Assembly: GCA_022844165.1 (NCBI GenBank)
Contig: JALHMH010000056.1
Location: 1-20,144 of the forward strand
Direction of reading: 5' to 3'
DNA length: 20,144 nt
Origin: Lysobacterales bacterium
Lineage (GTDB): Bacteria > Pseudomonadota > Gammaproteobacteria > Xanthomonadales > SZUA-5
Shown here in pieces: positions 1-20,144 of this stretch (position 1 is its first letter; every line of letters begins with the position of its first letter). The translations under genes and the position numbers were made by a program. The notes beneath the pieces were generated by a model. It had not been told where the DNA came from. It worked only from the letters and a program-made list of their open reading frames with translations, and did no database searches.

Positions 1-279
1 TCCCCCGGCGGACTGGCCAACACGCTAACCGTGGATGCGCTGGAATCGCGCCAATACGTTCGCAACGACTTGATTGCCTCGCTGCTTGGTCGCATCGGCG
101 TCCCTGAGCGCGAAGGACTGGGCGTGCGCAAGTATCTTGAGCGGCGCGGCGATGGTGTACCCATCATTCTCGAACGCAGCGAGGCCCTTGCAGGCACACG
201 ACCGGAGTATCAGTTGATCGACGACGCCGAGTTGAAGCTCACGATCTATGCCGCGGCACCTGAGAACATCGACGCATGA
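1..279 (+). CDS. 5'-truncated C-terminal part of an HATPase_c_4 (GHKL-like, often annotated 'RecG C-terminal') protein; paralogue of 1958..3190, probably an AlbA_2/Schlafen-HATPase protein
   Basis: Frame 1 is open from base 1: SPGGLANTLTVDALESRQYVRNDLIASLL...ERRGDGVPIILERSEALAGTRPEYQL...LTIYAAAP. It aligns by eye with the C-terminus of 1958..3190 (SPGGLPNTMT...RNELLVGLL...GVQQILDRSTALSGRTPLYQL...LTIYAAP). The stop TGA overlaps the mod ATG (ATGA 276-279). The N-terminal part is outside the window. Confidence 0.8.
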   Translation, partial: SPGGLANTLTVDALESRQYVRNDLIASLLGRIGVPEREGLGVRKYLERRGDGVPIILERSEALAGTRPEYQLIDDAELKLTIYAAAPENIDA

Positions 280-1961
280 GCACGCGCAATCGTCTCGAAC
301 TCACGTGGGTTGGCAAGGACCAGCGCCCGCGCCTGGAGCCCCGCATCCTGCTCGAAGACCCGGCGATGAGTTACCACGCGCCGGCACGTCGGGGCGACGC
401 CGATCAGTTCGACAATCTGTTGATCCATGGCGATAACCTGCTGGCACTGAAGGCGCTGGAAGCGGAATACGCCGGCAAGGTCAAGTGCATCTTCATCGAC
501 CCGCCCTACAACACTGGCAGCGCGTTCACGCACTATGACGATGGACTGGAGCATTCGCTGTGGTTGACGATGATGCGGGATCGGCTGCTGATCTTGCGTA
601 GTTTGTTGCGGGAGGACGGGTCTATCTGGATTACGATAGACGACAATGAAATGGCTTATCTTCGAGTACTCTTGGATGAGATCTTTGGCCGACAACAGTT
701 CATTGCCCAATGTGTGTGGCAAAAGGTTTACTCACCGAAAAGCTCAGCAAAGTTTATTTCGGATTCTCACGATTACGTCATTTGTTATGCAAAGGATGTT
801 GGTCAGTTTTCGATTAACCTCTTGCCGAGGGGCGAAAAACAAGATAAAGCCTACAAAAATCCCGACCGCGATCCGAGAGGCAAGTGGAAAGCTGGCGATC
901 TTTCCGCCAGGAATTACTACTCGGAAGGTCGCTACGCCATAGTAACTCCTTCCGGCAGGGTCATCGATGGGCCTCCGCAAGGAATGTATTGGCGTGTTTC
1001 CAAATCAAAGCTAGACGAGCTCAATCGAGACGGGAGGATTTGGTGGGGATCAAGCGGATCGAATGTACCCGCAATCAAGCGCTTTCTTACAGAAGTCAAA
1101 GATGGAATCGTTCCGCAAACATGGTGGACATACGACGAAGTAGGACATAACCAATCGTCAAAGCAGCATTTGAAGCGCATCTTGCCTGACGAATCTGAGT
1201 TGTTCATCACTCCAAAGCCAGAGGAACTGATTGCCAGGGTGCTTGTTCTCGCCACAGGAGTCGGCGACCTGGTCCTCGACTCCTTCTCTGGCTCTGGCAC
1301 CACTGGCGCGGTCGCCCACAAAATGGGCCGCCGCTGGATCATGGTGGAGCTTGGCGAGCACGCAAAGACGCATATCATCCCGCGGCTACGCAAAGTTATT
1401 GATGGCACCGATCCCGGCGGCGTCACCGAGACCTGCGGCTGGAAAGGTGGCGGCGGCTATCGCTTCATGCGTCTCGCGCCCTCGCTGATGCAGAGAAACG
1501 CCTTCGGCCACTGGGTCATCAGCCACGACTACAACGCCGAAATGCTCGCCGAAGCCGTGTGCAAGCACCTGGGCTTCCACTACCAGCCGCGCCCGGAGTT
1601 CTGGTGGATGATGGGAAGGTCCACCGAGCGCGATTTCATCTGCGTTACCACCGCTTCTCTGACCCACGAAGAACTCCGGGCCATCAGCGATGAAGTCGGC
1701 AGCGAACGCACTTTGCTGATCTGCTGCAAGGCCTTCATGGCACGCACCGACGCGTTCGAAAACCTGACCGTCCAGAAGATCCCACAGACCATCCTGCATC
1801 GCTGCGAATGGGGCCGCGATGACTATTCGTTGCGCGTGGCCGCATTGCCCGAAGCGCCAACCGAAAGCGCTCACGAACCCTCGCCTGCCGTCAGGACATC
1901 GTCTGCAAAGACCGACGTTGGCACTGGGGATCTCTTTGCCGCCAAGGAGAAGGACGCATGA
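276..1961 (+). CDS. mod: Type III restriction-modification methyltransferase (Mod, beta-class N6-adenine MTase)
   Basis: 561 aa. It has the N-terminal LELTWVGK and NLLIHGDNLLALKAL segments, catalytic motif IV IDPPYNTG, a central variable region, then TPKPEELI and SAM-binding motif I VLDSFSGSGTT (beta order). It shares an operon with a Res-like helicase-nuclease. Confidence 0.93.
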   Translation: MSTRNRLELTWVGKDQRPRLEPRILLEDPAMSYHAPARRGDADQFDNLLIHGDNLLALKALEAEYAGKVKCIFIDPPYNTGSAFTHYDDGLEHSLWLTMMRDRLLILRSLLREDGSIWITIDDNEMAYLRVLLDEIFGRQQFIAQCVWQKVYSPKSSAKFISDSHDYVICYAKDVGQFSINLLPRGEKQDKAYKNPDRDPRGKWKAGDLSARNYYSEGRYAIVTPSGRVIDGPPQGMYWRVSKSKLDELNRDGRIWWGSSGSNVPAIKRFLTEVKDGIVPQTWWTYDEVGHNQSSKQHLKRILPDESELFITPKPEELIARVLVLATGVGDLVLDSFSGSGTTGAVAHKMGRRWIMVELGEHAKTHIIPRLRKVIDGTDPGGVTETCGWKGGGGYRFMRLAPSLMQRNAFGHWVISHDYNAEMLAEAVCKHLGFHYQPRPEFWWMMGRSTERDFICVTTASLTHEELRAISDEVGSERTLLICCKAFMARTDAFENLTVQKIPQTILHRCEWGRDDYSLRVAALPEAPTESAHEPSPAVRTSSAKTDVGTGDLFAAKEKDA

Positions 1962-3190
1962 ACATCAGGGCGATCATTGAGCATGTTCTGCGCGGCGAAT
2001 CGACGTTGGTTGAGGCCAAGTTGGTATCGTTGGATGGCGATCGCCTGAGCCCACACCCGGAGAGCCTCGCACGCACACTTGCCGCGTTCGCCAACGCGCG
2101 AGGCGGTCAATTGGTGCTGGGTGTCGATAGCGAACGGCAAATAATCGACGGCATTAAGCGGGATCAGTTGCAGGGAATCTTGCAGAAACTTGACGGCATT
2201 CTCGTCGATACCATCAAGCCGCCGCTGTACTTTTCGGCAGTCGATCATGGGCAGGTCGTCGATTCCGATGGCGTCGAACACACGATCGTCGTCGTCGATG
2301 TGCCCAAGAGCCTGTTTGTTCACGAGGTCAAGGGCAAGACCGTGATTCGCGTCGGCACCTCAACCCGCGAACTCTCCGGCGATGCCCGCTCGCGTCTGGA
2401 AATGCAACGCAGCCACAGCAAGCTCCTGCACTTTGATGAGATGCCAATTCCCGGCTGTAAGCTGAGCGATCTTTCGCCAGCGCTGGTCGAGTCCTTGCTC
2501 ACCAGCGCCCGCGTCAGCGATCTGCGCGCGCTCCGTTTGGTATCCCAGGTTTTCGATCTTGTGCAGCCTGTGGTAGGCGCAGTGCTTCTGCTGACCGCTG
2601 AGCCCTTCCGCTGGCTGCGCGGCGCGTATATCCAGGCGGAGATTTTTCGTGGTCGGGACAAGGACCCGTCGCAGCAGGTTGATGCCCAACGCTTCGAAGG
2701 CCCGCTTGACCAGCAATTGATCGATTGCTGGAAGTTCTGCAAGCGCTATACGCGCGTGCGCATGATCAAGGATCCGGCGCGACTGGACATCCCAGAGTAC
2801 GATGAAGTGGCGTTGTTCGAAGCGATCGCGAACGCGGTGGTCCATCGCGACTATTCGATAACCGGCTCGCCGATCATGGTGTCGATGTACGACGACCGCA
2901 TCGAAATCGTCTCGCCCGGCGGCTTGCCAAATACGATGACCCTCGAATCGATGCGCACCTTGCCGATGCCGCGCAACGAATTGCTGGTGGGACTGTTGTC
3001 GCGCTACTACCGCACTCGGTTGTTGGGGGCAGAGAGGCATCTGGTTGAAGGACGCTTGTTCGGCGTGCAGCAGATTCTGGATCGCTCGACGGCGTTGTCC
3101 GGCCGCACGCCCCTTTACCAACTGCGGGACGAACCGCCGATGGTGGGTCTGACGATCTACGCTGCACCCGGCCCAGAGCGTGATCCGTGA
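1958..3190 (+). CDS. Schlafen/AlbA_2-domain protein fused to an HATPase_c_4 (GHKL-like) domain; putative nuclease effector or regulator
   Basis: 410 aa. AlbA_2 signatures GESTLVEAK and LAAFANARGGQLVLGVD are N-terminal; HATPase_c_4 signatures EAIANAVVHRDY and YDDRIEIVSPGGL are C-terminal. RBS AAGGAG at 1944-1949. ATGA overlap with mod and GTGA overlap with res. Confidence 0.85.
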   Translation: MNIRAIIEHVLRGESTLVEAKLVSLDGDRLSPHPESLARTLAAFANARGGQLVLGVDSERQIIDGIKRDQLQGILQKLDGILVDTIKPPLYFSAVDHGQVVDSDGVEHTIVVVDVPKSLFVHEVKGKTVIRVGTSTRELSGDARSRLEMQRSHSKLLHFDEMPIPGCKLSDLSPALVESLLTSARVSDLRALRLVSQVFDLVQPVVGAVLLLTAEPFRWLRGAYIQAEIFRGRDKDPSQQVDAQRFEGPLDQQLIDCWKFCKRYTRVRMIKDPARLDIPEYDEVALFEAIANAVVHRDYSITGSPIMVSMYDDRIEIVSPGGLPNTMTLESMRTLPMPRNELLVGLLSRYYRTRLLGAERHLVEGRLFGVQQILDRSTALSGRTPLYQLRDEPPMVGLTIYAAPGPERDP

Positions 3191-5955
3191 ACCCCGTTCG
3201 CGAAATCTCCCAGCGCTTGTCGCTACGCGCGCCGTTGGCCGAGTCGCTGGGCCTGCTGGCCGAGTTGGTTGAGTCCGGCGCTTTGCCGTTGAGCAAAGAC
3301 ATCGACATGGCCGCCGCACTGGCTGCAGTGCAAGCGCGCATTCCGAGTTTCACCAGCTTCGAGCGCGACTTTCCGTCCTTGTGTTTTGCGCTGGCGACGG
3401 GCGTGGGCAAGACTCGGCTGATGGCCGCCATCATTGCATGGCTCTATCGGACCGGCCGCAGTCGTCACTTCCTTGTTTTGGCGCCGAACCTGACGATCTA
3501 CGACAAGCTCAAGCGCGATTTCGATCAGGGAAGCGACAAGTATCTGTTTCGCGGGCTGCCGGACTTTTCAGTTCAACCGCCGCTATTGGTAACGGGGGAC
3601 GACTGGGATAGCGGCAAAGGTGTGCGCTTTGAGGACGCGCTCCCGATGACGGTGCCCGGCCAGCTTTTTGCGCAAAGCGCGCCCGTCATCAACGTCTTCA
3701 ACATCGCCAAGATCAACAGTCGTGGCGCCGGTGCGGACCGAAGCGCCCAGCCCCGACTGCGACGCCTGCAGGAGTGCATCGGCAAAAGCTACTTCGACTA
3801 TCTCGCCGCTCTGCCCGACCTTGTGGTCCTGATGGACGAGTCGCATCGCTACCGAGCAGACGCCGGCGCGCGCAGCATCGACGAGTTGAAGCCCGTCTTG
3901 GGCATCGAAATGACCGCAACCCCCAAGACCACCGGCGCAAAAGCCGTCTCGTTCAAGAACATCGCCTACAGCTTTCCCCTCGGCCGTGCCCTGGAGGCAG
4001 GATTCGTCAAGGAACCCACGGTTGCAACGCGCAAGGACTTCAACGCGCAAGGCGTACCACCCGATGAGTTGGAGCGCATCAAGCTGGAAGACGGTGTTCA
4101 TGTGCACGAGGCCACCAAGTTGGCGCTTGAGCAATACGCACAATCCGGGTTTGGGCCATTGGTCCATCCGTTCATGCTTGTCGTGGCCAGCGATACGACG
4201 CACGCCGCGTCCATCAAGCAGCGCATCGAAAACTTGGATTTCTTTGGCGGGCGCTACCGCGGCAAGGTGATCGAGATCCACTCAAAAACATCGGCGGCCG
4301 AGAGTGATGAAAACACGGCAAAACTGTTGCAGATCGAGCATGACCCGAGCACCGAAATTGTCATCCACGTCGACAAGCTCAAGGAAGGCTGGGACGTCTC
4401 GAACCTGTTCACCATCGTTCCGCTGCGAACCTCTGCGGCAGAAATTCTGACCGAACAGACCATCGGGCGCGGGCTTCGCTTGCCCTTTGGCACCCGAACC
4501 AATGACAAGATCATTGATCGGCTGACGATCATTGCTCACGACAAGTTCCGCGAGATCATCGACAAGGCCAACGATCCAAATTCGTTGATTCGCGCCACAG
4601 TCACCGTCGGCGCGGGCGGTGACATCGACACGCACGCGCCCACTCCCATCGCGTCGGTGCCGATCTATCAACGATTCTTGGGCGTGCCGGTGTCGCCCGT
4701 GGTCGGTGTTCAGGACTCTCTGCTTGTCACTACCGACAAGCCTGCGCGCTCAAGTTCGGCACCGGCGACACCAGCGGCACCAGCGGCACCGGCGGCACCA
4801 GCGATAAGCACACAACTTTTTGAAGCCGTGCTTGACTCGATTGATCTGGAGGGATTGCGAATCGACTCCGCCAGCGCGCTCTTGTCGGCTGGCCACATCG
4901 ACAACGTTGCGCGAATGGTCGCCGCGCGGATGACAATCCCGCAGGAATCAACGCCTGCCGAAAACCGGGAACAAATCGAGAGAGTCATCGAGGCAGTGGT
5001 CAGGAGCTCGATCGAGATTCCGACAATCACGCTGGTGCCATCAACTGGAAGGCACTTTCGATTCGTGCCCTTCGAACTTGCGGGACTGCAGCGCATCCAG
5101 CTTCAGCCCATCGATAACGAGATCCTGCTGCAAGAACTGCGAACCAAGGATCGCGCACTGCTGTCGACGGCGGGTAGCGCGCGCCGCGAGCCCATCCCGG
5201 AAAATTATCTGGTCGCGCTGTTGATGGAACGCGACGAGATCGACTATGACACCCACGCGGAACTGCTGCACAACCTGGCGGCCCAGGTGGTCGGCAGACT
5301 GAAGTCATACCTTCCGGATGAAGACGATATTCACAACGTCCTTCAACATCATCGAAGGAGTTTGGCCGACCTGATCTGGACGCAGATGAAGGCTCATGTG
5401 CACGAGGAGCCAATCGACTTCACCGCCAAGATCACACGCGGTTTCACCGTGCTGCGCTCTCGGCCGCTGAACAGCGTCGATGGCGTCGTGCACCCCTTTG
5501 GAGAGCAACTTACTGATCGAGCGCGCATTCGCTCCATGGTCTTCGGCAATTTCTCGAAGTGTTGCTTCAGTACACAAAAATTCGACTCCAAGGAAGGCGA
5601 GTACGAACTCGTCCGCGTTCTGGAGCGGGACGACGATGTCCTTAAATGGCTCAAGCCCGCAGTCGGACAGTTCGTCATTGAGTACGACCACGGCAAGCGT
5701 TACTTCCCGGATTTCGTCGTGGAGACAAGGACCGAGCGCCTGATCATCGAACTCAAGCGCGAGGATTGGAAGGAAGATCCCACGGTAGAAACCAAGGCTC
5801 GCGCCGCTGCGCGTTGGTGCCATTACGCGACCTTGGTCTGCGCCGAGACGGGCGGTAAGCCCTGGGCTTACCTTCTGATATCGCACCAGGGTTTTGGGCC
5901 GCAATCAACCTTCGCCGCCCTTCGGGCGCAGTATGGGCGTGACGTTCACTACTGA
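3187..5955 (+). CDS. res: Type III restriction endonuclease subunit (Res): SF2 helicase/ATPase with C-terminal PD-(D/E)xK nuclease
   Basis: 922 aa, GTG start. Walker A LATGVGKT, motif Ia LVLAPNLTI, Walker B LMDESH, motif III MTATP, LKEGWD, motif VI EQTIGRGLR, and nuclease motif YFPDFVVE...IIELK. Confidence 0.9.
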   Translation: MNPVREISQRLSLRAPLAESLGLLAELVESGALPLSKDIDMAAALAAVQARIPSFTSFERDFPSLCFALATGVGKTRLMAAIIAWLYRTGRSRHFLVLAPNLTIYDKLKRDFDQGSDKYLFRGLPDFSVQPPLLVTGDDWDSGKGVRFEDALPMTVPGQLFAQSAPVINVFNIAKINSRGAGADRSAQPRLRRLQECIGKSYFDYLAALPDLVVLMDESHRYRADAGARSIDELKPVLGIEMTATPKTTGAKAVSFKNIAYSFPLGRALEAGFVKEPTVATRKDFNAQGVPPDELERIKLEDGVHVHEATKLALEQYAQSGFGPLVHPFMLVVASDTTHAASIKQRIENLDFFGGRYRGKVIEIHSKTSAAESDENTAKLLQIEHDPSTEIVIHVDKLKEGWDVSNLFTIVPLRTSAAEILTEQTIGRGLRLPFGTRTNDKIIDRLTIIAHDKFREIIDKANDPNSLIRATVTVGAGGDIDTHAPTPIASVPIYQRFLGVPVSPVVGVQDSLLVTTDKPARSSSAPATPAAPAAPAAPAISTQLFEAVLDSIDLEGLRIDSASALLSAGHIDNVARMVAARMTIPQESTPAENREQIERVIEAVVRSSIEIPTITLVPSTGRHFRFVPFELAGLQRIQLQPIDNEILLQELRTKDRALLSTAGSARREPIPENYLVALLMERDEIDYDTHAELLHNLAAQVVGRLKSYLPDEDDIHNVLQHHRRSLADLIWTQMKAHVHEEPIDFTAKITRGFTVLRSRPLNSVDGVVHPFGEQLTDRARIRSMVFGNFSKCCFSTQKFDSKEGEYELVRVLERDDDVLKWLKPAVGQFVIEYDHGKRYFPDFVVETRTERLIIELKREDWKEDPTVETKARAAARWCHYATLVCAETGGKPWAYLLISHQGFGPQSTFAALRAQYGRDVHY
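4759..4803 (+). repeat. In-frame 9-bp tandem repeat, 5 copies of RCACCRGCG, encoding APA-TPA-APA-APA-APA in the Res linker
   Basis: Read directly: gcaccggcg acaccagcg gcaccagcg gcaccggcg gcaccagcg. Confidence 0.9.
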
Positions 5956-5978
5956 ATCAAGCAGGAGAAGCATCGCCA

Positions 5979-7766
5979 TCAAAACCAACCGTCGCGCATC
6001 GTCAGTGCGCTGTCGTCGCTGACGACGATCTTGCACCAATGCCACACCTGCGGCAGTTCGGTGGCGAAGAAGAAGCGGCAGGTGGCGAGTTTGCCGGCGG
6101 CAAAATCTGCGTCGATGTCTGCCCCGAGCGCGATGCGGGCTTGTTTGAGCCAGATCCATGCGATGCAGACATGCCCTAAAGCCTGCAAATAGAAACTTGC
6201 ATTCGCCAGTGCTGCACGCACATCGCCGGCTCCCATGCGCTGCGCGGCGTGCTGGCTGGCGCGCAGGATTTCATCGCGCGCCAGTCCCAGCTGGTCGGCA
6301 AGTTCCTTGAGCTCCTCGAGCGCACGCGCGGCGTCGATGTCGAGATTGATTTCGTCGATCAGCGCTCTGAGCGCGGCACCGTTTTGCATCGTCACTTTGC
6401 GGCCCAGCAGATCGAGCGCCTGGATACCGTTGGTGCCTTCGTGAATCGGGTTGATGCGGTTGTCGCGATAGTACTGCTCGACGGGATAGTCGCGGGTGTA
6501 GCCATAACCGCCGAGCACCTGGATCGCCATCTCGTTGGCCCGCAGGCTGTAGTCCGACGACCAGGCTTTGACGATCGGCGTCAGCAGCTCCAGTAGCAAT
6601 GCGCTGCGGTCGCGTTGCAGTGGATCGTGCATCTGGTCGACCAGCCGTGCGCTATACAACGCCAGCACATGCGCACCTTCGACGTAAGCGCGCTGCGCCA
6701 GCAACATGCGGCGCACATCGGCGTGTTCGATCAGTGCAATCGGCATTGTGGCCGGATCTTTCTGATCTGGATGCCGGCCCTGCCGACGCTCGCGTGCGTA
6801 GTCGAGCGAGTACAAGTAGCCGGCGATTCCCTGAGAGATCGCGCCAACGCCAACCCCGATGCGTTCCTCGTTCATCATGTGGAACATGTAGCCCAGGCCC
6901 TGGTGCGGCTGGCCCACAAGCTCTGCATAACAATCGCCGTTTTCGCCGAACTTGAGAAAGGTATTGACGCTGCCGCGCTGGCCCATCTTGTGATTCAAGC
7001 CGGCCAATTGCACGTCGTTGCGCGCCGCACGCGTGCCGTCCGGGTCGACGCGAAAACGCGGCACGATAAACAAACTGATGCCGCGCACGCCAAGCGGCGC
7101 ATCGACGATGCGCGCCAGCACCAGATGGATGATGTTTTCGCCGAGTTCGTGATCGCCCGCGCTGATCCACATTTTCGCGCCGCTGAGGCGATAGCTGCCG
7201 TCGGCCTGCAATTCGGCGCGGCAGCGGATATCGGCCAACGACGAGCCGGCTTGCGGCTCCGATAAACACATCGTGCCGAAAAAGCGGCCATCGATGATCG
7301 GCTGCGCGTAACGTTCGATCTGCGTTGGCGTGCCGTAGCTGAGCAGCAGGTTCGCCACGCCGCGCGCAAGGCTTGGGTAGGCCACGGTGCCGGCATTGGC
7401 GGCGGCGAACAGGGTGTCGCACGCGGTGGTGACCATGAACGGCATCTGCATACCGCCGCGTTGCGCGTCGATCGAAGCGGCGGTGAAACCGGCCTCATTG
7501 TAGGCCGCTACCGCATCGCCGATCTCGGGAATCAACGCGACCTTGCCATCGACGAATAGCGGTTCGTTCAAGTCCGACTTGCGGTTGTGCGGCGCGAATT
7601 TTTCGAGTGCGATGCGTTGTGCTAAATCGAGCGCCGCATCGAAGGTATCGCGGCTGTGCATCGAAAAATGCGGCAACGCCGTGAGCCCTTCGGCATCGAG
7701 CACGTCATACAACGCAAAACGCAAATGGCGGGCATCGTTGATGCGGACGGAAACACTGCTGGTCAT
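5979..7766 (-). CDS. Acyl-CoA dehydrogenase (long, about 595 aa type)
   Basis: Motifs GTMCLSEPQAGSSL, GAKMWISAG, RGISLFIVP, HKMGQRG, AIQVLGGYGY and RINPIHEGTNGIQALDL. Start placed at ATG 7766 (MTSSVSV); the upstream ATG at 7799 is also possible. Confidence 0.92.
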   Translation of the reverse strand: MTSSVSVRINDARHLRFALYDVLDAEGLTALPHFSMHSRDTFDAALDLAQRIALEKFAPHNRKSDLNEPLFVDGKVALIPEIGDAVAAYNEAGFTAASIDAQRGGMQMPFMVTTACDTLFAAANAGTVAYPSLARGVANLLLSYGTPTQIERYAQPIIDGRFFGTMCLSEPQAGSSLADIRCRAELQADGSYRLSGAKMWISAGDHELGENIIHLVLARIVDAPLGVRGISLFIVPRFRVDPDGTRAARNDVQLAGLNHKMGQRGSVNTFLKFGENGDCYAELVGQPHQGLGYMFHMMNEERIGVGVGAISQGIAGYLYSLDYARERRQGRHPDQKDPATMPIALIEHADVRRMLLAQRAYVEGAHVLALYSARLVDQMHDPLQRDRSALLLELLTPIVKAWSSDYSLRANEMAIQVLGGYGYTRDYPVEQYYRDNRINPIHEGTNGIQALDLLGRKVTMQNGAALRALIDEINLDIDAARALEELKELADQLGLARDEILRASQHAAQRMGAGDVRAALANASFYLQALGHVCIAWIWLKQARIALGADIDADFAAGKLATCRFFFATELPQVWHWCKIVVSDDSALTMRDGWF

Positions 7767-7842
7767 GGCGATCGGACTGAAGTGGCAAACCCCGATCATC
7801 GCTGGGCACGGCGTACGAACGCCAGGGGTTTTCGTGATGCGA

Positions 7843-9891
7843 TCAACTGCGCTTGCGCGAGCGCCAGAAGCGAATGACGAACAACAGCACGATCAGCGGT
7901 CCACCGATCAGCGCAATTCGCCCGGCGAGCGCGATCCACTGTGCGCGCATCTGCTGCTCGACTTTGGCAAAATCCGGCGCCGGGCACTGTTGGCCGAACT
8001 GCGCGCCCCAGGGCACAAATGCACCGTGATTCAAATAGCGCCTGTAAATCGGCGCTGCCGTCTCCGGTTCGCGCACCAGCACAAAGCTGGACGCAGTGCA
8101 CAATACGGCGGCATAGGCCTGACTGCGTTGCGGCAGACGATCCGCCGCCTGTTCGGCGTGACGTGCGGCGATGCCACGATAGTGGAACCGCATCAGCGGA
8201 TCGGCACGCGATAAGGCAACGCGGTTGCGTTCGGCATCGCTGGTGTGCGGTCCTTCAACCGCAAGATCCTGACGCTTGTCGACAATGAGATTGTAGTTTT
8301 CGTCGTATCGATAAGGACTATTCAGATCGTAGTTGCCGCCGTATTCGGCGTAATCGGGATCGCCTTCGAAACCAGCGATTTCAAGGCCACGCGCGCGCAT
8401 CAGTTCAGCTGCCCGGAACCACGCGCGAGCTTGCCCGACTTTCGTCCAGGCGCCGGTGGCGTCGAGCGCAGCAACGTACTCTTGAGCGGCTGCACGCAGT
8501 TCAGGATCGTCGAAGTAGGCGATCGCTTCGGCGCCCTGGCCGGTGCGCAGCAAACGCCGTGCGAGCAGCCAACGCGCCTGCTGCGCGGGCATGGGTGTGA
8601 TGCGGTCTTCGGGTGTTGCCACGGCCTGCGGCGCGACGCGGTCGACGAAGGCGCGCAACTCAGCGACTGTGACCACACGTTCGGCCACGTAGGCGAAGTC
8701 CGTCCAGTGGCGTTCCGCACCGGCGTACAGCAGCTCTAACGCTTGCAGGAACTCGCCGCGTCCGAGCGCCAGCGTACCCGCCTCGGCGGACACGCGGCAG
8801 CGGACCGCGAGCCCTTCATCATCGCCGAACGGATTGCTGTCGACCCAGGTCTCGTCGGCTGGGAAACTGCGGGCCGCTTTGGCGTAGTCGCCAATGGCGT
8901 CGTCCAGGCGGCCTTGTTTCACCGCGAGTTTGGCGCGCACCCAGGCAGCCAGCGGGGTATCGCCTGCGGCGAACCTGGCGGCGCGCGCATCGTCGCCACC
9001 GCGGTACAGCACCGCCGCGAGGCGATCCGCATCGGGCACGTCGTTCACCGGCAGCGCGGCGAGGCGATCGAGCAACTCGACGTTGGCCAGTTCAGCATCG
9101 CGCGCAAACAGATAACCCACCAATATCCGGCGCCCCAGATCGTCCTGCAGGGCCGCGTCCGCCAGCGCCGGTGTCCGCGAGATCTGGCGTGCGACCATGA
9201 GTAACGAGGCTTGCCCTGAGCGCGAACCCAGCGCTGCCTGTTCGGCATACAGTTTCAGTGCGGTTGGCAGGTCGCCGCGATGCCATTCGCCACGCGCTTG
9301 CTCACCAAAACTTGCGAGCGCCAAACCGAGCGGATCGTCACCACCGGTGGTCGCGAAGTCGCGGGTTTGTTCGAAAGCGTTGCGCGCCGCGTCGATATCG
9401 TTCGATTGAACGGCAATGCGGCCGAGCATGTACGCCGCCCAGATCCCGCGCTTTCGGCGTTCTTCCGCAGGCAGCGCCACGACCCTTGCGAATCGCGACT
9501 GGGCTCGATCCCAAGCGCCGATGTGGTAGTCCACTGCACCGGCGGTGTACTCCCGTAGCTCAAGGGAAAGATCGGCCCCAAGCGCCCACGCGGCCTCGCC
9601 ATCGGCTGCGGCGCGCATGCGCGCCAGTGCTTGCGCTGCGTCCACCGACAACCCGGCGATCTCTGCTGCCTGTCGCGCCTCCAGCGGATCCGCCCAAGGA
9701 TCCGCGTCGGCGACCACGAAGCGAGTCTTGGGTATCGCCCAGCGTTTGCTCTCGAAGGCAAAGATCCCTTCAGGCATTTCCAGCAATGTGTGACTGCGTT
9801 GCGCAAGCAGCGCGACCGGGAAGTCGGGACCGCAGGCATGCACTTGGGCGCAGCCCAGGGCTACAGCGACAATCAGACTCAGATGGCGCAT
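7843..9891 (-). CDS. Exported helical-repeat (TPR-like) hypothetical protein with C-terminal membrane anchor
   Basis: From ATG 9891: signal-peptide-like MRHLSLIVAVALGCAQVHA followed by CGPDFP. TPR-like segments include WAAYMLGRIA...DAARNAFEQ and AKLAVKQGRLDDAIGDYAKA. The C-terminal hydrophobic helix IALIGGPLIVLLFVI is followed by the basic tail RFWRSRKRS. Confidence 0.75.
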   Translation of the reverse strand: MRHLSLIVAVALGCAQVHACGPDFPVALLAQRSHTLLEMPEGIFAFESKRWAIPKTRFVVADADPWADPLEARQAAEIAGLSVDAAQALARMRAAADGEAAWALGADLSLELREYTAGAVDYHIGAWDRAQSRFARVVALPAEERRKRGIWAAYMLGRIAVQSNDIDAARNAFEQTRDFATTGGDDPLGLALASFGEQARGEWHRGDLPTALKLYAEQAALGSRSGQASLLMVARQISRTPALADAALQDDLGRRILVGYLFARDAELANVELLDRLAALPVNDVPDADRLAAVLYRGGDDARAARFAAGDTPLAAWVRAKLAVKQGRLDDAIGDYAKAARSFPADETWVDSNPFGDDEGLAVRCRVSAEAGTLALGRGEFLQALELLYAGAERHWTDFAYVAERVVTVAELRAFVDRVAPQAVATPEDRITPMPAQQARWLLARRLLRTGQGAEAIAYFDDPELRAAAQEYVAALDATGAWTKVGQARAWFRAAELMRARGLEIAGFEGDPDYAEYGGNYDLNSPYRYDENYNLIVDKRQDLAVEGPHTSDAERNRVALSRADPLMRFHYRGIAARHAEQAADRLPQRSQAYAAVLCTASSFVLVREPETAAPIYRRYLNHGAFVPWGAQFGQQCPAPDFAKVEQQMRAQWIALAGRIALIGGPLIVLLFVIRFWRSRKRS

Positions 9892-10168
9892 GCGATGCTC
9901 GGTGCAGAATGGCGCTGCCAAGCATGCCACGGGTGCCGGGGCCGTTGACCGGAAACGACGACACGCAGGCACTCGTCGTGTTTGCGCGCGACGAGCGATT
10001 TCGGTTTCGAATCTGACGGCCTTACCGCTTCCATTGCGCGCCGCGGTATTACTGTGGCTGGCACCAACTTCCGTTCTGGCCTACGTTGCTGGCCTCGGGT
10101 CTGGTCCGCGCAGCCTCGGGCGAGGGCGGCGGACCAGATCGACCATCGGTATCAGTGACAATCGGCGC

Positions 10169-12883: not shown

Positions 12884-15586
12884 TCAAAGCTGCAACGCTG
12901 CCAGGGCGCGCGCTTGCACATTCCGCATTTCTGCCAGCGCCTCCTCGGAAATGTGGCCCTGCTGTTGCGCGCTGGCAACGGCGCTCTTCAGTCGCCAATA
13001 GTCTTCTCGCTGGGCGCGGGATGAGACCAATAACTGCGCCGCCAGGGCCAATCGCCCTTGACCCCACAGGCGTTGCGCCAGAACCAGACGTCTTTGCGGC
13101 CGTTCGCCTGCCAGACGCTCCATGTCCCGCCAATGGCCTGTGCGTGTGGACCCATCCGGCTGCTGCAGCGCTTCGATCCACCTGCGGGTTTCCAGTAGCG
13201 TTCGCGCAGCATCAGCGTTGCCAATCAACGCCGGCTCCATGCGCAGTGTCAGTGCGTGTGCATGCGTCAGCGCATCGGTTTGTCTCCCGACAAAATGCCC
13301 GATAGCCACGAGCCTCTCGATCGATTCCAAGGCCTTGACCAGGTTGTTTTGCTGCAAAAATCTCAGTGTCAGTGCCTGCATCCTGCCGATGCACTGATCA
13401 GCATCGATCCGGCAGCGGCTTTGTACGATCTGCAGTTCGGCCCTGGCGGCCAGATCGGGGCGAGTCAGCTTATCGGCGTCCGCCAAGGCGTGTTCGCCGA
13501 TGCTGATGGCTTGCTCATGCAGTCCGATAGCGCTCAGTTTTGCCGCAACGTTGATCATCGATGACAGCGCTGCGACCGGATCGCCCAGTTGTTGCCGCAA
13601 TCGCTGCGCACGTGCGGAGAGCTCAATCGTCAGCACCGCATCGTCTCGCGCGTCGGCAATCGCCGCGAGGTTGTGGACCGTTGCCGCTTCTATCCCGGGA
13701 TTGACGCCGCCCTCGCTACGCTCCAGCAACGTGCGCCAAACCTGCTCGGCCTGCGCGATTTCGCCTTTGCGATACAGCGCCATCCCACGGTTCTGCAAAA
13801 TCAGAAAGTGGTTGCGTTGGTTAGGAAACGTCTTGAGCTGTTGTTCCGCTCGCGTCAGATTCTCGAGCGCGGAATCGAAGCGCGCCAAGTCGATTTCCGC
13901 CAATGCGATATTGATATATGCCGGCACCGGAGAGACCGCGGGTGTTGCGGACGCCGACTGTACGATCGCCTGCCGGTTGGATGCGATCGCGTCCAGCGGG
14001 CGTGCCGTCCTGGTTTGCAGCACGCCCAAGGACAGCAGCGCCGAGCTGCGCAATGCAGGTTCCAGTCGGTCGCCCTCCAACAACGCCAGCAACCGCCGTT
14101 CGGAACGCTCGATTTCACCGATATCGAGTTCGGCGCGTGCCAACAGGACTCCCACGCGGTCCGACGGATACTGCTCGTATTGCTCGACCAGTTCGGCATG
14201 CGCGATGGCGGGTTTGCCTTCGATGCTTGCCACGCGTGCGCGCCACATTCGCGCGGTGGACGCGTCGATCGCGTCCAGGTCGACGCCGCTTAACAAGCGC
14301 TTCGCGGTGTCGGTTTCCCCGAGCCGAAGTTGAATCTCGACCAGCAGACCGATCAATTCCTGGCGAACATCCTGATGCAGGCTTCGGTCCGACTGGATTC
14401 GCGCGACGCCGGATTGGATCAACTCCCTGGCAGTCAAGTCGGGATCGGTACCCCGCGTCGGATCACCATCTTGAAACAGGCTGAGCAAGTAGTTCCTGGT
14501 GGCCTCGGAGCGCTCGGCCTGCGCGCGCGCGATGTCGCGTTGCGATTGTAGTTGAGCGTTGAACCAGACCAGCCCGGCCATGGCCAACACAGCGAGTGTC
14601 GCGCCCGTGGCGCTCGTCCAGGGATGCCGGCGTACCGCACAACGTAGGCTGTACATCAAGCCACTGCCCATCGCTTGCACCGGCAGATTGTCTTGCCAGC
14701 GCCGCAGATCGGCACTGAAGTCAGCCACCGAGCCGTAGCGCGACTCTGGCGACGGCGCGCAAGATTTCGCGACGATCGCCCTGAGTTCTGTGCGGCGTGG
14801 TTCGCCCACGCCGACCGATTTGTCTTTGCCAATGCTCAAGGCCATCGCGAGCAGGCGTCCGAGTTGAAACTGATCGGAAGCGGGTCCACAGGGCGCGAGC
14901 GACAGTTGCTCGGGACTTGCCCACGCCGGCGAATAGGCCTGCGCCACGGATCCGTCCGAAAGACCGGCAATGCCGAAGTCCAGCAGTTTTGCCATACCGT
15001 TGCGGTCGATCAGAACGTTGCTGGGTTTGACGTCGCGGTGAACCAACAAGCGCCCGTGGGCCGCGCTCAACGCGCTGGCAATCTGCTGCACGATCGCCAA
15101 CGTGGTCGGCAGATCCGGCTGAACTTGTGCCAGGTATTCGTCGAAGTGCCGGCCATCGATCATCTCCATCGCAAACCACGATAACAACAAGCACGTGGTC
15201 GGTTGCGCCACATCTGGTTCTGCGTGACCCCGCTGGTCGACCGGAAGCTCGGTGCTTCCCGCGTCCAGGAACAGCGCAATGTGCGGGTGCTTGAGTTCGG
15301 ACAACACCTGGCGTTCCCGGCGAAACGAGGCGAGCAGCGTTTCATTGCCGGTATTGGCGATGCACTTGATCGCTACCTGCTGATGGAACTCGCCGTCGAC
15401 GCGCTCCGCCAGATAGACAACGCCCATCCCGCCCCGCCCGATTTCCGAACGAATCGCAAAAGGGCCGAGGCGAAAGCCCGCTGGCAGTCGCAGCGGGGGT
15501 TCTGCCTGCGCCAACATGCTGCGAAAGAGCGCTCCTCCGAGCAGAGTGCCGGGCTCCAACAGCTTCAGGACTTCGTCGGGACGCAT
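12884..15586 (-). CDS. Membrane-bound Hanks-type Ser/Thr protein kinase with extracytoplasmic TPR region
   Basis: Motifs IGRGGMGVVYLA, VAIK, FRRERQVL, HRDVKPSN, LLDFGIA and ASPEQ, then TM segment ATLAVLAMAGLVWF and TPR-like repeats. The start is uncertain; ATG 15586 was chosen because the longer ORF overlaps the sigma gene. Confidence 0.9.
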   Translation of the reverse strand: MRPDEVLKLLEPGTLLGGALFRSMLAQAEPPLRLPAGFRLGPFAIRSEIGRGGMGVVYLAERVDGEFHQQVAIKCIANTGNETLLASFRRERQVLSELKHPHIALFLDAGSTELPVDQRGHAEPDVAQPTTCLLLSWFAMEMIDGRHFDEYLAQVQPDLPTTLAIVQQIASALSAAHGRLLVHRDVKPSNVLIDRNGMAKLLDFGIAGLSDGSVAQAYSPAWASPEQLSLAPCGPASDQFQLGRLLAMALSIGKDKSVGVGEPRRTELRAIVAKSCAPSPESRYGSVADFSADLRRWQDNLPVQAMGSGLMYSLRCAVRRHPWTSATGATLAVLAMAGLVWFNAQLQSQRDIARAQAERSEATRNYLLSLFQDGDPTRGTDPDLTARELIQSGVARIQSDRSLHQDVRQELIGLLVEIQLRLGETDTAKRLLSGVDLDAIDASTARMWRARVASIEGKPAIAHAELVEQYEQYPSDRVGVLLARAELDIGEIERSERRLLALLEGDRLEPALRSSALLSLGVLQTRTARPLDAIASNRQAIVQSASATPAVSPVPAYINIALAEIDLARFDSALENLTRAEQQLKTFPNQRNHFLILQNRGMALYRKGEIAQAEQVWRTLLERSEGGVNPGIEAATVHNLAAIADARDDAVLTIELSARAQRLRQQLGDPVAALSSMINVAAKLSAIGLHEQAISIGEHALADADKLTRPDLAARAELQIVQSRCRIDADQCIGRMQALTLRFLQQNNLVKALESIERLVAIGHFVGRQTDALTHAHALTLRMEPALIGNADAARTLLETRRWIEALQQPDGSTRTGHWRDMERLAGERPQRRLVLAQRLWGQGRLALAAQLLVSSRAQREDYWRLKSAVASAQQQGHISEEALAEMRNVQARALAALQL

Positions 15587-15630
15587 CGATGCCAACTCGC
15601 TTGCAAGGCCTAAGACCGCAGACCCGGTTC

Positions 15631-16200
15631 TTAGGGTGAGTCCGCCAACAGCTGTGCCAGCCGCAACTTGGCGTTGGCCTGGATGCGCTGCATGCTGCGC
15701 AATGGCAGGTTCAGTGCGAGCGCAGTTTCTTCGTCGGTCATGCCCGAGAACAAGCGACATTCGATCACTCGAACCGCGATGGCGTCCGTTTGCGCCAATT
15801 GCTCCAATGCCGTGTTTAGCGCGATCAGTTGTTCTGCTTCCTCGTTGGCTTGCTGCTCAAACGATGCCTGCGCATCGGCGCTCGCCAGCGTGGTCTGTTG
15901 CATCAGCCCGCCGCGCTTTTGCGCTACCCGGTCTCGAGCGTGGTTAAGCATCAACTGCCGCATCGCACGCGCGGCGAGCGCCAGAAAGTGCTGTCGGTTG
16001 GTCACCGCCCCAGCGCCAGCGCGCTCCAGCCGCAGATAACATTCGTGAACGAGGCTCGTCGCGTTCAGGCTTTGATCGCTGCGGCCAAGCACACCGCGTG
16101 CGATGTGTTTCAGGTCGGCATACACCAGGGCGACCGCCTGATCCCACGCAGAACTATCGCCGTCGCGAGCGCGTTCGAGAAGCAGTGTGACATCGCCCAT
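15631..16200 (-). CDS. ECF sigma factor of the kinase-associated ECF43 / TIGR02999-like type
   Basis: MGDVTLLLERARDGD...VYADLKHIA...LNATSLVHECYLRL...RQHFLALAARAMRQLMLNHAR...KRGG...VIECRLFSGMTDEETALAL. It lies directly upstream of a Ser/Thr kinase gene. Confidence 0.9.
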   Translation of the reverse strand: MGDVTLLLERARDGDSSAWDQAVALVYADLKHIARGVLGRSDQSLNATSLVHECYLRLERAGAGAVTNRQHFLALAARAMRQLMLNHARDRVAQKRGGLMQQTTLASADAQASFEQQANEEAEQLIALNTALEQLAQTDAIAVRVIECRLFSGMTDEETALALNLPLRSMQRIQANAKLRLAQLLADSP

Positions 16201-20026: not shown

Positions 20027-20144
20027 TAGTGTGGTGTTCCGTCATTAAGTTGAACAATATTTCCGATGGATTTCGGCGTCAGGCAAGGCGCGACGAGGGT
20101 GAAAGTCGGTGGCTTTCGCGGCATGCCGCGAGCCGACTTGAACG
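20027..20144. mobile_element. Possible left part of a palindromic MITE-like element, truncated by the window end
   Basis: Begins TAGTGTGGTGTTCCGTCATTAAGTT, an AT-richer TIR-like end after TA. It contains the perfect 16-bp palindrome TCGCGGCATGCCGCGA (20116-20131) nested in AAGTCGG/CCGACTT. The second end is not visible. Confidence 0.35.

Follow-up and report, generated by a model that had tools for sequence, protein, structure and literature searches.

Two Schlafen/GHKL genes in the variable slots of a probable type III restriction island of a Lysobacterales bacterium

Type III restriction-modification (R-M) systems such as Eco86II and BspHIV are described as having, 5' of their mod gene, an extra gene for a helicase-like ATPase, an arrangement reported from more than 500 genomes in which the role of this ATPase is given as unknown and its presence as dispensable for cleavage in vitro (PMC8259958). 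EcoR22I is reported to have a drmD-related SNF2 gene, and its Mod and Res proteins alone are described as restricting phage and as killing the cell when Ocr is present (10.1101/2023.04.06.535777). Here we analyze a locus of this layout in a Lysobacterales bacterium (assembly GCA_022844165.1), located at the start of contig JALHMH010000056.1, the 20,144 nucleotides of which constitute the window under study. In this locus, two genes combining a Schlafen (AlbA_2) domain with a GHKL domain, termed copy 1 and copy 2, are interleaved with SNF2, mod and res genes. We consider it moderately probable, as a single joint proposition, that the locus is a horizontally acquired island, that its SNF2, Mod and Res proteins form a conserved type III R-M machine of the Eco86II/EcoR22I kind, and that its two Schlafen/GHKL genes are autonomous abortive RNase genes carried as passengers in two variable slots.

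The unit formed by the AlbA_2 and GHKL domains has been named Schlatpase and is counted in 60,692 of 103,533 prokaryotic Schlafen proteins (10.64898/2026.05.29.728809). According to the same source, ATP-driven tetramerisation of the SLFN-pAgo protein RzAgo builds a Schlafen nuclease that cleaves tRNA and aborts infection, and the Schlatpase oligomerises via both of its domains, each dimer containing protomers in two conformations. Among prokaryotic Schlafens (pSlfn), the Schlafen-HisKinase (34%) and Schlafen-HisKinase-HTH (19%) architectures are reported as the commonest (10.1101/2025.07.24.666596). CbCash is described as a tRNase, and clusters of ATPase-bearing Schlafens as "tightly associated" with R-M and BREX (PMC13462974), with genes coding for a Schlafen domain and a minimal histidine kinase being presented as embedded "backup suicidal effectors" in at least 1017 taxa (PMC12839542). 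An initial annotation of the window had proposed its Schlafen/GHKL genes as back-up effectors of the R-M system; this general idea is in print, as are all the components and the embedding principle, and it agrees with published descriptions of related prokaryotic Schlafens as phage-triggered tRNases and with surveys linking them to R-M and BREX as back-ups. The locus resembles the embedded Schlafens of BREX, BREX-related and Hma systems (PMC12839542; 10.1101/2024.01.29.577857) in that a Schlafen domain with a minimal histidine kinase occupies a variable slot of a methylation-based defence operon. It differs from them in that the host is a type III R-M system, in that no winged helix-turn-helix (wHTH) domain is present, and in the occurrence of two copies in one operon.

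The window is one contig (C56) of a genome in 59 contigs (G000), and its first position is a contig end. The reverse complement of a second contig, C26, terminates in the same 119 nt with which the window begins, and a search of the genome's contigs for the first 60 nt of the window returned no contig other than C26. Joining C26 and C56 yields a five-gene unit in the order SNF2, Schlafen/GHKL 1, Mod, Schlafen/GHKL 2, Res, in an island of approximately 9.9 kb of which window positions 1-5955 are the larger part (Table 1). The four open reading frames (ORFs) of the window, their order and the three 4-nt overlaps between them (ATGA at 276-279, ATGA at 1958-1961, GTGA at 3187-3190) were as initially annotated, on the evidence of the ORF list and of direct reading of the sequence. 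The annotated operon of four genes is correct as to these genes and is extended to five by the SNF2 gene upstream. Similarly, the ORF designated "HATPase paralogue 1" does encode a HATPase domain, but it is the 3' end of a whole AlbA_2 + HATPase_c_4 gene, since C26 overlaps the start of the window and contributes 370 codons, to which the window adds 53 more. The SNF2 gene overlaps copy 1 by 19 nt, and only copy 1 separates it from mod. An AAGGAGA ribosome-binding site at 1944-1950 lies ahead of the ATGA that joins mod to copy 2, and the GTG start codon of res falls opposite an ATG start codon in the alignment with its closest relative. Start/stop overlaps are common in operons.

Table 1. Features of the island and their positions (window coordinates unless prefixed by contig C26).
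Feature	Position	Strand	Remarks
SNF2 gene, 933 aa	C26:1094-3895	-	SNF2-rel_dom 126.7 bits; PADLOC DrmD 625.5 bits
Schlafen/GHKL gene 1 (copy 1, TrlG-like Schlatpase, ~423 aa), first 370 codons	C26:3-1112	-	overlaps window 1-119
Schlafen/GHKL gene 1, last 92 codons	1..279	+	5' end open in window
Type III Mod methyltransferase, 561 aa	276..1961	+	Pfam N6_N4_Mtase, PADLOC MTase_III
mod segment without DNA similarity to L005, probable target-recognition region	692..1261	+	
Swapped cassette: last ~35 mod codons and whole Schlafen/GHKL gene 2	1856..3187	+	
Schlafen/GHKL gene 2 (copy 2), 410 aa	1958..3190	+	small divergent clade
Type III Res, 922 aa	3187..5955	+	ResIII, PADLOC REase_III
175-bp direct repeat, right copy	5978..6152		left copy C26:4005-4179, just upstream of SNF2 gene

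The variability of the two slots is apparent from the comparison with related islands. Among 25 genomes of the family, the island, as defined by this Res, was identified in five, spread over five of eight genera, and it was not found in the only other genome of the same genus; related genomes in this and the following surveys are not independent samples. The family islands differ at exactly two junctions, SNF2/mod and mod/res. The island of G003 (locus L005 in the survey of Res relatives) encodes SNF2, copy 1, mod, a 915-residue TrlF-like PHP/ABC ATPase, res and a GmrSD-like gene, that of G017 presents SNF2, copy 1, mod and res, and that of G010 SNF2, copy 1 and decayed mod and res genes. In G020, SNF2 is followed by IetA (339.7 bits), IetS (1273.1 bits), mod and res, with the IetA-IetS pair, complete according to PADLOC, lying between SNF2 and mod (L091:4908-8248). 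Copy 1 is kept directly after SNF2 in four genomes belonging to four genera, with orthologues at L005:4215-5486 (423 residues), L090:7207-8475 and L092:6159-7430. Copy 2 was not found in any other genome of the family, the search of the 25 genomes returning only copy-1 orthologues and two 31%-identical matches elsewhere.

The islands of the window and of L005 are nearly identical outside their variable parts, with protein identities of 96% for Res, 93% for SNF2, 89% for copy 1 and 70% for Mod. Their DNA is 86-91% identical over SNF2, copy 1, window positions 1-691 and 1262-1855, and res from its second base, and presents no similarity over 692-1261 and over 1856-3187. The first dissimilar segment lies within mod, the flanking parts of which are 87% identical to L005; judging from this pattern it is probably a swapped target-recognition region, which implies a specificity different from that of L005. 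As a separate observation, the central region of mod was also encountered at approximately 99% identity (5 differences in 856 nt) in a wastewater run of another study. The second segment comprises the tail of mod and copy 2 in the window versus the tail of mod and the TrlF-like gene in L005, and a comparison of the 3' end of copy 2 with the short spacer that follows the L005 TrlF-like gene revealed no leftover similarity. Copy 2 and the TrlF-like gene hence represent a clean cassette exchange between near-identical islands. The 915-residue protein of L005 scores 554 bits against the NCBIfam TrlF model (cutoff 350), 537 bits against NCBIfam Ppl, below the cutoff of 1000, and 443 bits against PADLOC Ppl. 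As regards expression, no RNA data set was listed among those carrying the locus. Contigs from three sequencing runs of one study carry exact pieces of the locus that include both junctions of copy 2. In a run from a different study, coverage extends to mod and res but not to 1927-3210, where there is just a weak joint with sides of only 36 nt; this was taken as no evidence. Directly after res, L005 has a GmrSD_N / HEC-05-like gene (L005:12814-14529, type IV restriction-like) at the place where the window has an acyl-CoA dehydrogenase gene.

A wider survey was anchored on Res and comprised 80 loci, with one genome per species, onto which the five proteins were mapped by tblastn. The mod-res junction was evaluable in 72 loci; in the remaining eight, which were dropped, either mod or the start of res was undetected or lay beyond the contig. 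Mod directly abuts res in 69 of the 72, and the inserts in the other three are the TrlF/Ppl-like gene of L005, a 432-residue ORF in L011 and an insert in the distant locus L081. With the exception of the window, no Schlafen gene was found between mod and res in the surveyed loci, and Schlafen/GHKL matches were obtained in two of the 80: the match of L005 lies between SNF2 and mod, that of L018 downstream of res. The earlier view of the accessory genes as an integral part of this mod/res clade finds no support in these neighbourhoods, where mod abuts res or the slots are otherwise filled or empty. SNF2 is located directly upstream of mod in eight of 56 loci evaluable for this feature, all among the closest relatives of Res. 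Six of these eight (Comamonas, three Polynucleobacter and two Clostridia) present a bare SNF2-mod-res trio, with 6-10 nt between SNF2 and mod. The Brachyspira sp. CAG:484 scaffold of L011 carries SNF2, mod and res with a 154-residue ORF (3091-3555) in the first slot, the 432-residue ORF (5613-6911) in the second and a DUF1016/YhcG nuclease gene after res. Neither of the two ORFs has a Pfam or PADLOC match, which makes them candidates for cargo defence genes of an unknown kind.

These distributions bear on a mechanism of the kind favored by the initial annotation, in which one or both Schlafen/GHKL proteins would be kept latent by binding to Mod-Res or to SNF2, in the manner of PrrC, until an anti-restriction protein releases the RNase. 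PrrC consists of an ABC ATPase and a HEPN-like nuclease, is encoded in the order hsdM/S-prrC-hsdR and is itself optional cargo, so that the non-conservation of the Schlafen genes lowers the probability of such a guard rather than refuting it. The order mod, copy 2, res mirrors that of PrrC-EcoprrI (type Ic), with a latent RNase-type gene placed between the genes for modification and for restriction in an ATP-dependent R-M system and the same layered-defence logic, and the 4-nt overlaps on both sides of copy 2, together with the maintenance of copy 1 behind SNF2, fit a guard as well. The work on the SNF2-linked EcoR22I, a system that itself answers Ocr with cell death, counts PrrC, PARIS and retrons among anti-anti-restriction back-ups (10.1101/2023.04.06.535777). 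That death, however, is attributed to Mod and Res alone, so no extra effector is needed. Moreover, the Schlafen/GHKL family also occurs without an R-M partner, either stand-alone or with TrlF, the contents of the slots are interchangeable with unrelated systems (TrlF-like, IetAS), and nearly all the evaluable relatives have nothing between mod and res. Unlike in PrrC-EcoprrI, the proteins involved are Schlafen/GHKL proteins unrelated to PrrC, and the likeness is one of gene arrangement; no PrrC match was obtained in Pfam, PADLOC or NCBIfam, and neither copy has an ABC ATPase or anticodon nuclease domain. On balance, a PrrC-like guard appears unlikely.

In Mod, the DPPY motif precedes FSGSGTT, which is the beta-class motif order, and the protein scores 149.5 bits against Pfam N6_N4_Mtase and 722.6 bits against PADLOC MTase_III. 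Res presents the SF2 helicase motifs ATGVGKT and DESH and a C-terminal PD-x(n)-ExK motif (FPDF...IELK), scoring 65.8 bits against Pfam ResIII and 771.2 bits against PADLOC REase_III, and the original assignment of both proteins to type III R-M is supported by the agreement of Pfam and PADLOC. Together with SNF2, they would methylate host DNA and cut unmethylated invading DNA. As in Eco86II, BspHIV and EcoR22I, the mod and res genes are preceded by a gene for a SNF2/DrmD-like ATPase, this trio recurs and the island is mobile. Unlike in Eco86II and EcoR22I, two extra genes are present at the SNF2/mod and mod/res junctions. This likeness rests on gene layout and published descriptions. An assignment to DISARM class 1 or ARMADA was also considered. 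Both systems are described as being defined by a YprA/DUF1998 helicase, and the assignment was rejected, given that no YprA-family/DUF1998 helicase is encoded among the five genes and that Res fits type III models.

Both Schlafen/GHKL proteins have the same domain architecture. Copy 2 matches SLFN_AlbA_2 (46.4 bits) followed by HATPase_c_4 (60.8 bits; PF13749, GHKL), and copy 1 matches the same Pfam models with 51.2 and 45.4 bits, its 92-residue fragment in the window scoring 46.6 bits against HATPase_c_4. The PADLOC SLFN-pAgo model (N-terminal positions 55-432) aligns to residues 35-396 of copy 2. An AlphaFold2 (AF2) model of copy 2, with a mean predicted local distance difference test score (pLDDT) of 91.5 and a predicted template modelling score (pTM) of 0.66, was compared to the PDB using Foldseek and matched DIP2311/3LMM over its whole length (E ~1e-19). 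Its N-terminal domain matched mammalian SLFN5/11/12/13/14 and the SAMD9 tRNase domain, and its C-terminal domain pyruvate dehydrogenase kinases and histidine kinases. Pfam, the AF2 model and Foldseek thus concur with the description of copy 2 as a Schlafen-fold protein with a GHKL domain. Copies 1 and 2 are Schlatpase supradomain proteins, TrlG-like and of the HisKinase class without a C-terminal HTH. They share with RzAgo, the pSlfn classes and CbCash the AlbA_2 + PF13749 GHKL architecture, the E-x4-(E/D)-x-K motif defined by Taboada et al. (10.1101/2025.07.24.666596), the GHKL E-x3-N motif and a defence context. Unlike SLFN-pAgo and Cash, they have no Argonaute, Csx15 or immunoglobulin-like sensor domain, and copy 2 is without the aspartate equivalent to D248 of SLFN13 and the G2-type glycine discussed below.

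The likeness to TrlG connects both copies to the temperature restriction locus of Photorhabdus laumondii, in which trlG (misannotated as recG) is described as mutated in nearly all temperature-tolerant Photorhabdus clones and as needed for heat-induced growth arrest (PMC7554251); the mutations would be consistent with a growth-arresting effector. The genomic context of homologues approximately 40% identical was analyzed in 26 neighbourhoods: 11 loci came from a class sample, in which 8 of 399 other genomes matched, and 15 loci from a phylum sample, in which 15 of 400 other genomes did. In 20 of the 26 (L107, L109-L111, L113, L116, L154-L156, L158-L168), the gene immediately upstream of a Schlatpase of approximately 415 residues, on the same strand, encodes a TrlF/Ppl-like PHP-ABC ATPase. 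These pairs stand alone or sit inside Hma/DUF499-DUF1156 or type I loci, and involve several Schlatpase clades. Of the other six neighbourhoods, one each has the Schlatpase gene after a DEAD helicase, before a type ISP enzyme, after a type III Res and on its own, one has a longer form of 590 residues, and in the sixth no TrlF-like gene was found. Viewed in reverse within the class sample, a Schlatpase follows six of seven close TrlF-like loci, and eight more distant Ppl-like loci are without a following Schlatpase. Copies 1 and 2 therefore resemble the TrlF-TrlG and Ppl systems in belonging to a family of ~415-residue proteins usually encoded after a TrlF/Ppl-like gene, a likeness that rests on the published description (PMC7554251) and on the NCBIfam TrlF matches of neighbouring genes. 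Unlike in the TrlF-TrlG cassette, no TrlF/Ppl-like gene lies upstream: a tblastn search of the window's genome with seven queries (E 1e-5) found none. The sister island of G003 does have a TrlF-family gene, but on the other side of mod from copy 1.

Conserved residues were compared in an alignment of 134 sequences, comprising eight members of the copy-2 clade, four copy-1 sequences and 122 other homologues. The E-x4-E-x-K motif initially annotated in copy 2 (ESTLVEAK) is present. All members of the two copy clades retain its residues E14, E19 (with Asp instead in copy 1) and K21, as do at least 119 of the remaining 122 homologues. The GHKL residues E288 and N292, counterparts of the ATP/Mg residues E314 and N318 of RzAgo, are kept everywhere. 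The aspartate of a G-V-x-D motif is found in 120 of 122 other homologues and in all four copy-1 sequences, and is replaced by serine (S58) in all eight members of the copy-2 clade. The aspartate of copy 2 noted in the initial annotation, within GVD, is D57, a neighbour and not an equivalent of the catalytic position, because the family-invariant aspartate occupies the next position, Ser58 in copy 2. In the alignment of the family profile to rat SLFN13 (5yd0), the G-V-x-D aspartate corresponds to the second aspartate of GVDD, D248, which, counting from E205 and E210, is the third active-site residue in the residue list of PMC5862951, a source that also reports mutation of E249 as harmless. A second substitution affects the glycine of R-R-G-x-G-V, present in all 122 other homologues and in the three complete copy-1 sequences and in none of the eight copy-2 clade members (L367 in copy 2). 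By likeness to other GHKL ATP lids, the glycine at position 367 would be a G2-type or ATP-lid element. R/K365 is likewise lost throughout the clade. As the copy-2 clade is well conserved, with a mean column identity of 72%, the Asp-to-Ser change is fixed and not a sign of decay. Judged from the alignment, copy 1 carries every conserved catalytic residue, and the RNase and ATP switch of copy 2 are probably altered, weakened or lost.

The copy-2 clade is small. Seven close relatives of copy 2 are 56-65% identical to it and the next ones at most 42%, and copies 1 and 2 are 38% identical to each other. A metagenome scan for the clade returned only two loci, 28% identical; a viral scan returned no relatives; in the phylum sample relatives reached only ~40% identity; and the best of 15 plasmid records matching copy 2 was 39% identical. 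In a quick maximum-likelihood tree and in a FastTree tree, copy 1 and copy 2 each fall in their own long-stemmed clade. A claim of independent acquisition of the two copies was dropped, as a tree joining them had an approximately unbiased P-value (p-AU) of 0.155, for a group that had been named after seeing the tree. Given its 38% identity to copy 1 and its absence from the other four islands, copy 2 does not appear to be a recent in-place duplicate of copy 1.

The fixed substitutions could potentially indicate that copy 2 is a non-catalytic or re-tuned Schlatpase, acting as a hetero-oligomer partner, inhibitor or sensor subunit for copy 1. The loss of D58, G367 and R/K365 across a clade under constraint agrees with this, as do the asymmetric dimers described for the Schlatpase, with their two protomer conformations (10.64898/2026.05.29.728809), the report of several mammalian SLFNs without catalytic residues (PMC13462974), and the presence in G003, in the same slot, of TrlF, the usual partner of this Schlatpase family. 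It is countered by the presence of copy 1 without copy 2 in G003, G017 and G010, and by the fact that E14, E19, K21, E288 and N292 of copy 2 are intact and that D57 and E59 flank the lost aspartate. A re-tuned copy 2 is, in our estimate, improbable to a degree similar to that of the PrrC-like guard. A bolder version, slightly less probable again, would have the copy-2 clade as a pseudo-enzyme that forms an asymmetric hetero-oligomer with copy 1 and gates or aims its tRNase, in the role that the TrlF-like partner has for the family elsewhere, the sister island included. If this were true, copy 2 would be a bacterial counterpart of the asymmetry between inactive and active lobes in mammalian Schlafens, and the cargo of both slots in one R-M operon would form a single system.

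Database names of homologues, such as "predicted HTH transcriptional regulator" or "transcriptional regulator", suggest in turn that the Schlafen/GHKL proteins could be DNA-binding regulators of the R-M operon. Copy 2 stops right after its GHKL domain, which leaves no C-terminal HTH. The whole family conserves its nuclease and ATPase motifs, the R-M clade does without a regulator of this type at most of its loci, and the characterised relatives are RNases. A regulatory role is hence the least credible of the alternatives considered and is regarded as very improbable.

The preferred interpretation remains that of a restriction island of the Eco86II/EcoR22I type with two autonomous abortive RNase genes as passengers. 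With gene content, domains, motifs, slot variability and cassette swap as observed, the RNase activity, ATP gating, abortive outcome and trigger of the Schlafen/GHKL proteins are what we infer by analogy. Homology to SLFN-pAgo, Cash, pSlfn5 and TrlG suggests for each protein the role of a self-contained latent toxin, whose oligomerisation would assemble the Schlafen RNase site; the assembled RNase would cut tRNA and arrest the infected cell. The Schlafen layer would act as a second, abortive layer when restriction fails, and overlap-coupled co-expression would hold the two layers together without making them one enzyme. Several points weigh against this interpretation. No experiment on a stand-alone Schlatpase embedded in an R-M system was found in the literature, and only two of the seven pSlfn genes assayed by Taboada et al. 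are reported as protective (10.1101/2025.07.24.666596). The 4-nt coupling on both sides of copy 2, and the fact that four genera keep copy 1 behind SNF2, would also be compatible with a functional link to the R-M proteins. In addition, copy 2 may be no RNase at all, because all eight members of its clade have a serine at the position of D248 and have lost G367.

The island is flanked by housekeeping genes, with a carboxyltransferase and SpoT on one side and an acyl-CoA dehydrogenase and MetK on the other. The two copies of the 175-bp direct repeat are 96.6% identical, bracket all five genes and correspond to the 3' end of the acyl-CoA dehydrogenase gene (5979-7799, minus strand), in a manner resembling an att-type target duplication. 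No integrase was found within the island, and the same-genus genome G008, which has the two flanks on separate contigs, presented no clean empty site. The islands of G003 and G017 are not on the contig that carries the acyl-CoA dehydrogenase homologue of the respective genome. Promoter and terminator scans produced no more matches than in shuffled sequence.

Downstream of the island, the housekeeping genes are accompanied by a 709-residue ORF without any family (7843-9972, minus strand) and by a 958-residue Ser/Thr protein kinase with tetratricopeptide repeats (12884-15760, minus strand). The last 60 nt of the window (20085-20144) recur on 13 other contigs, probably as the margin of an insertion sequence present in several copies, and this would account for the contig ending there.

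Three features are particular to this locus. The first is the presence of two Schlatpases, one in each slot of one island, although the supplementary tables of published surveys may already list this arrangement. The second is the exact swap of copy 2 and a TrlF-like cassette between near-identical islands, and the third, as read from the alignment, is the fixed signature of the copy-2 clade, an Asp-to-Ser change combined with the loss of a glycine. The locus offers a clear illustration of layered immunity in nature, in which a SNF2-helped type III enzyme is combined with abortive-infection genes in fixed slots. Since the near-identical islands differ only in the content of their slots and in the specificity of Mod, they constitute a convenient comparison set, bearing on whether embedded Schlafen RNases act through the restriction enzyme or independently of it, on the triggers of stand-alone Schlatpases and on the effect of the fixed Asp-to-Ser change.

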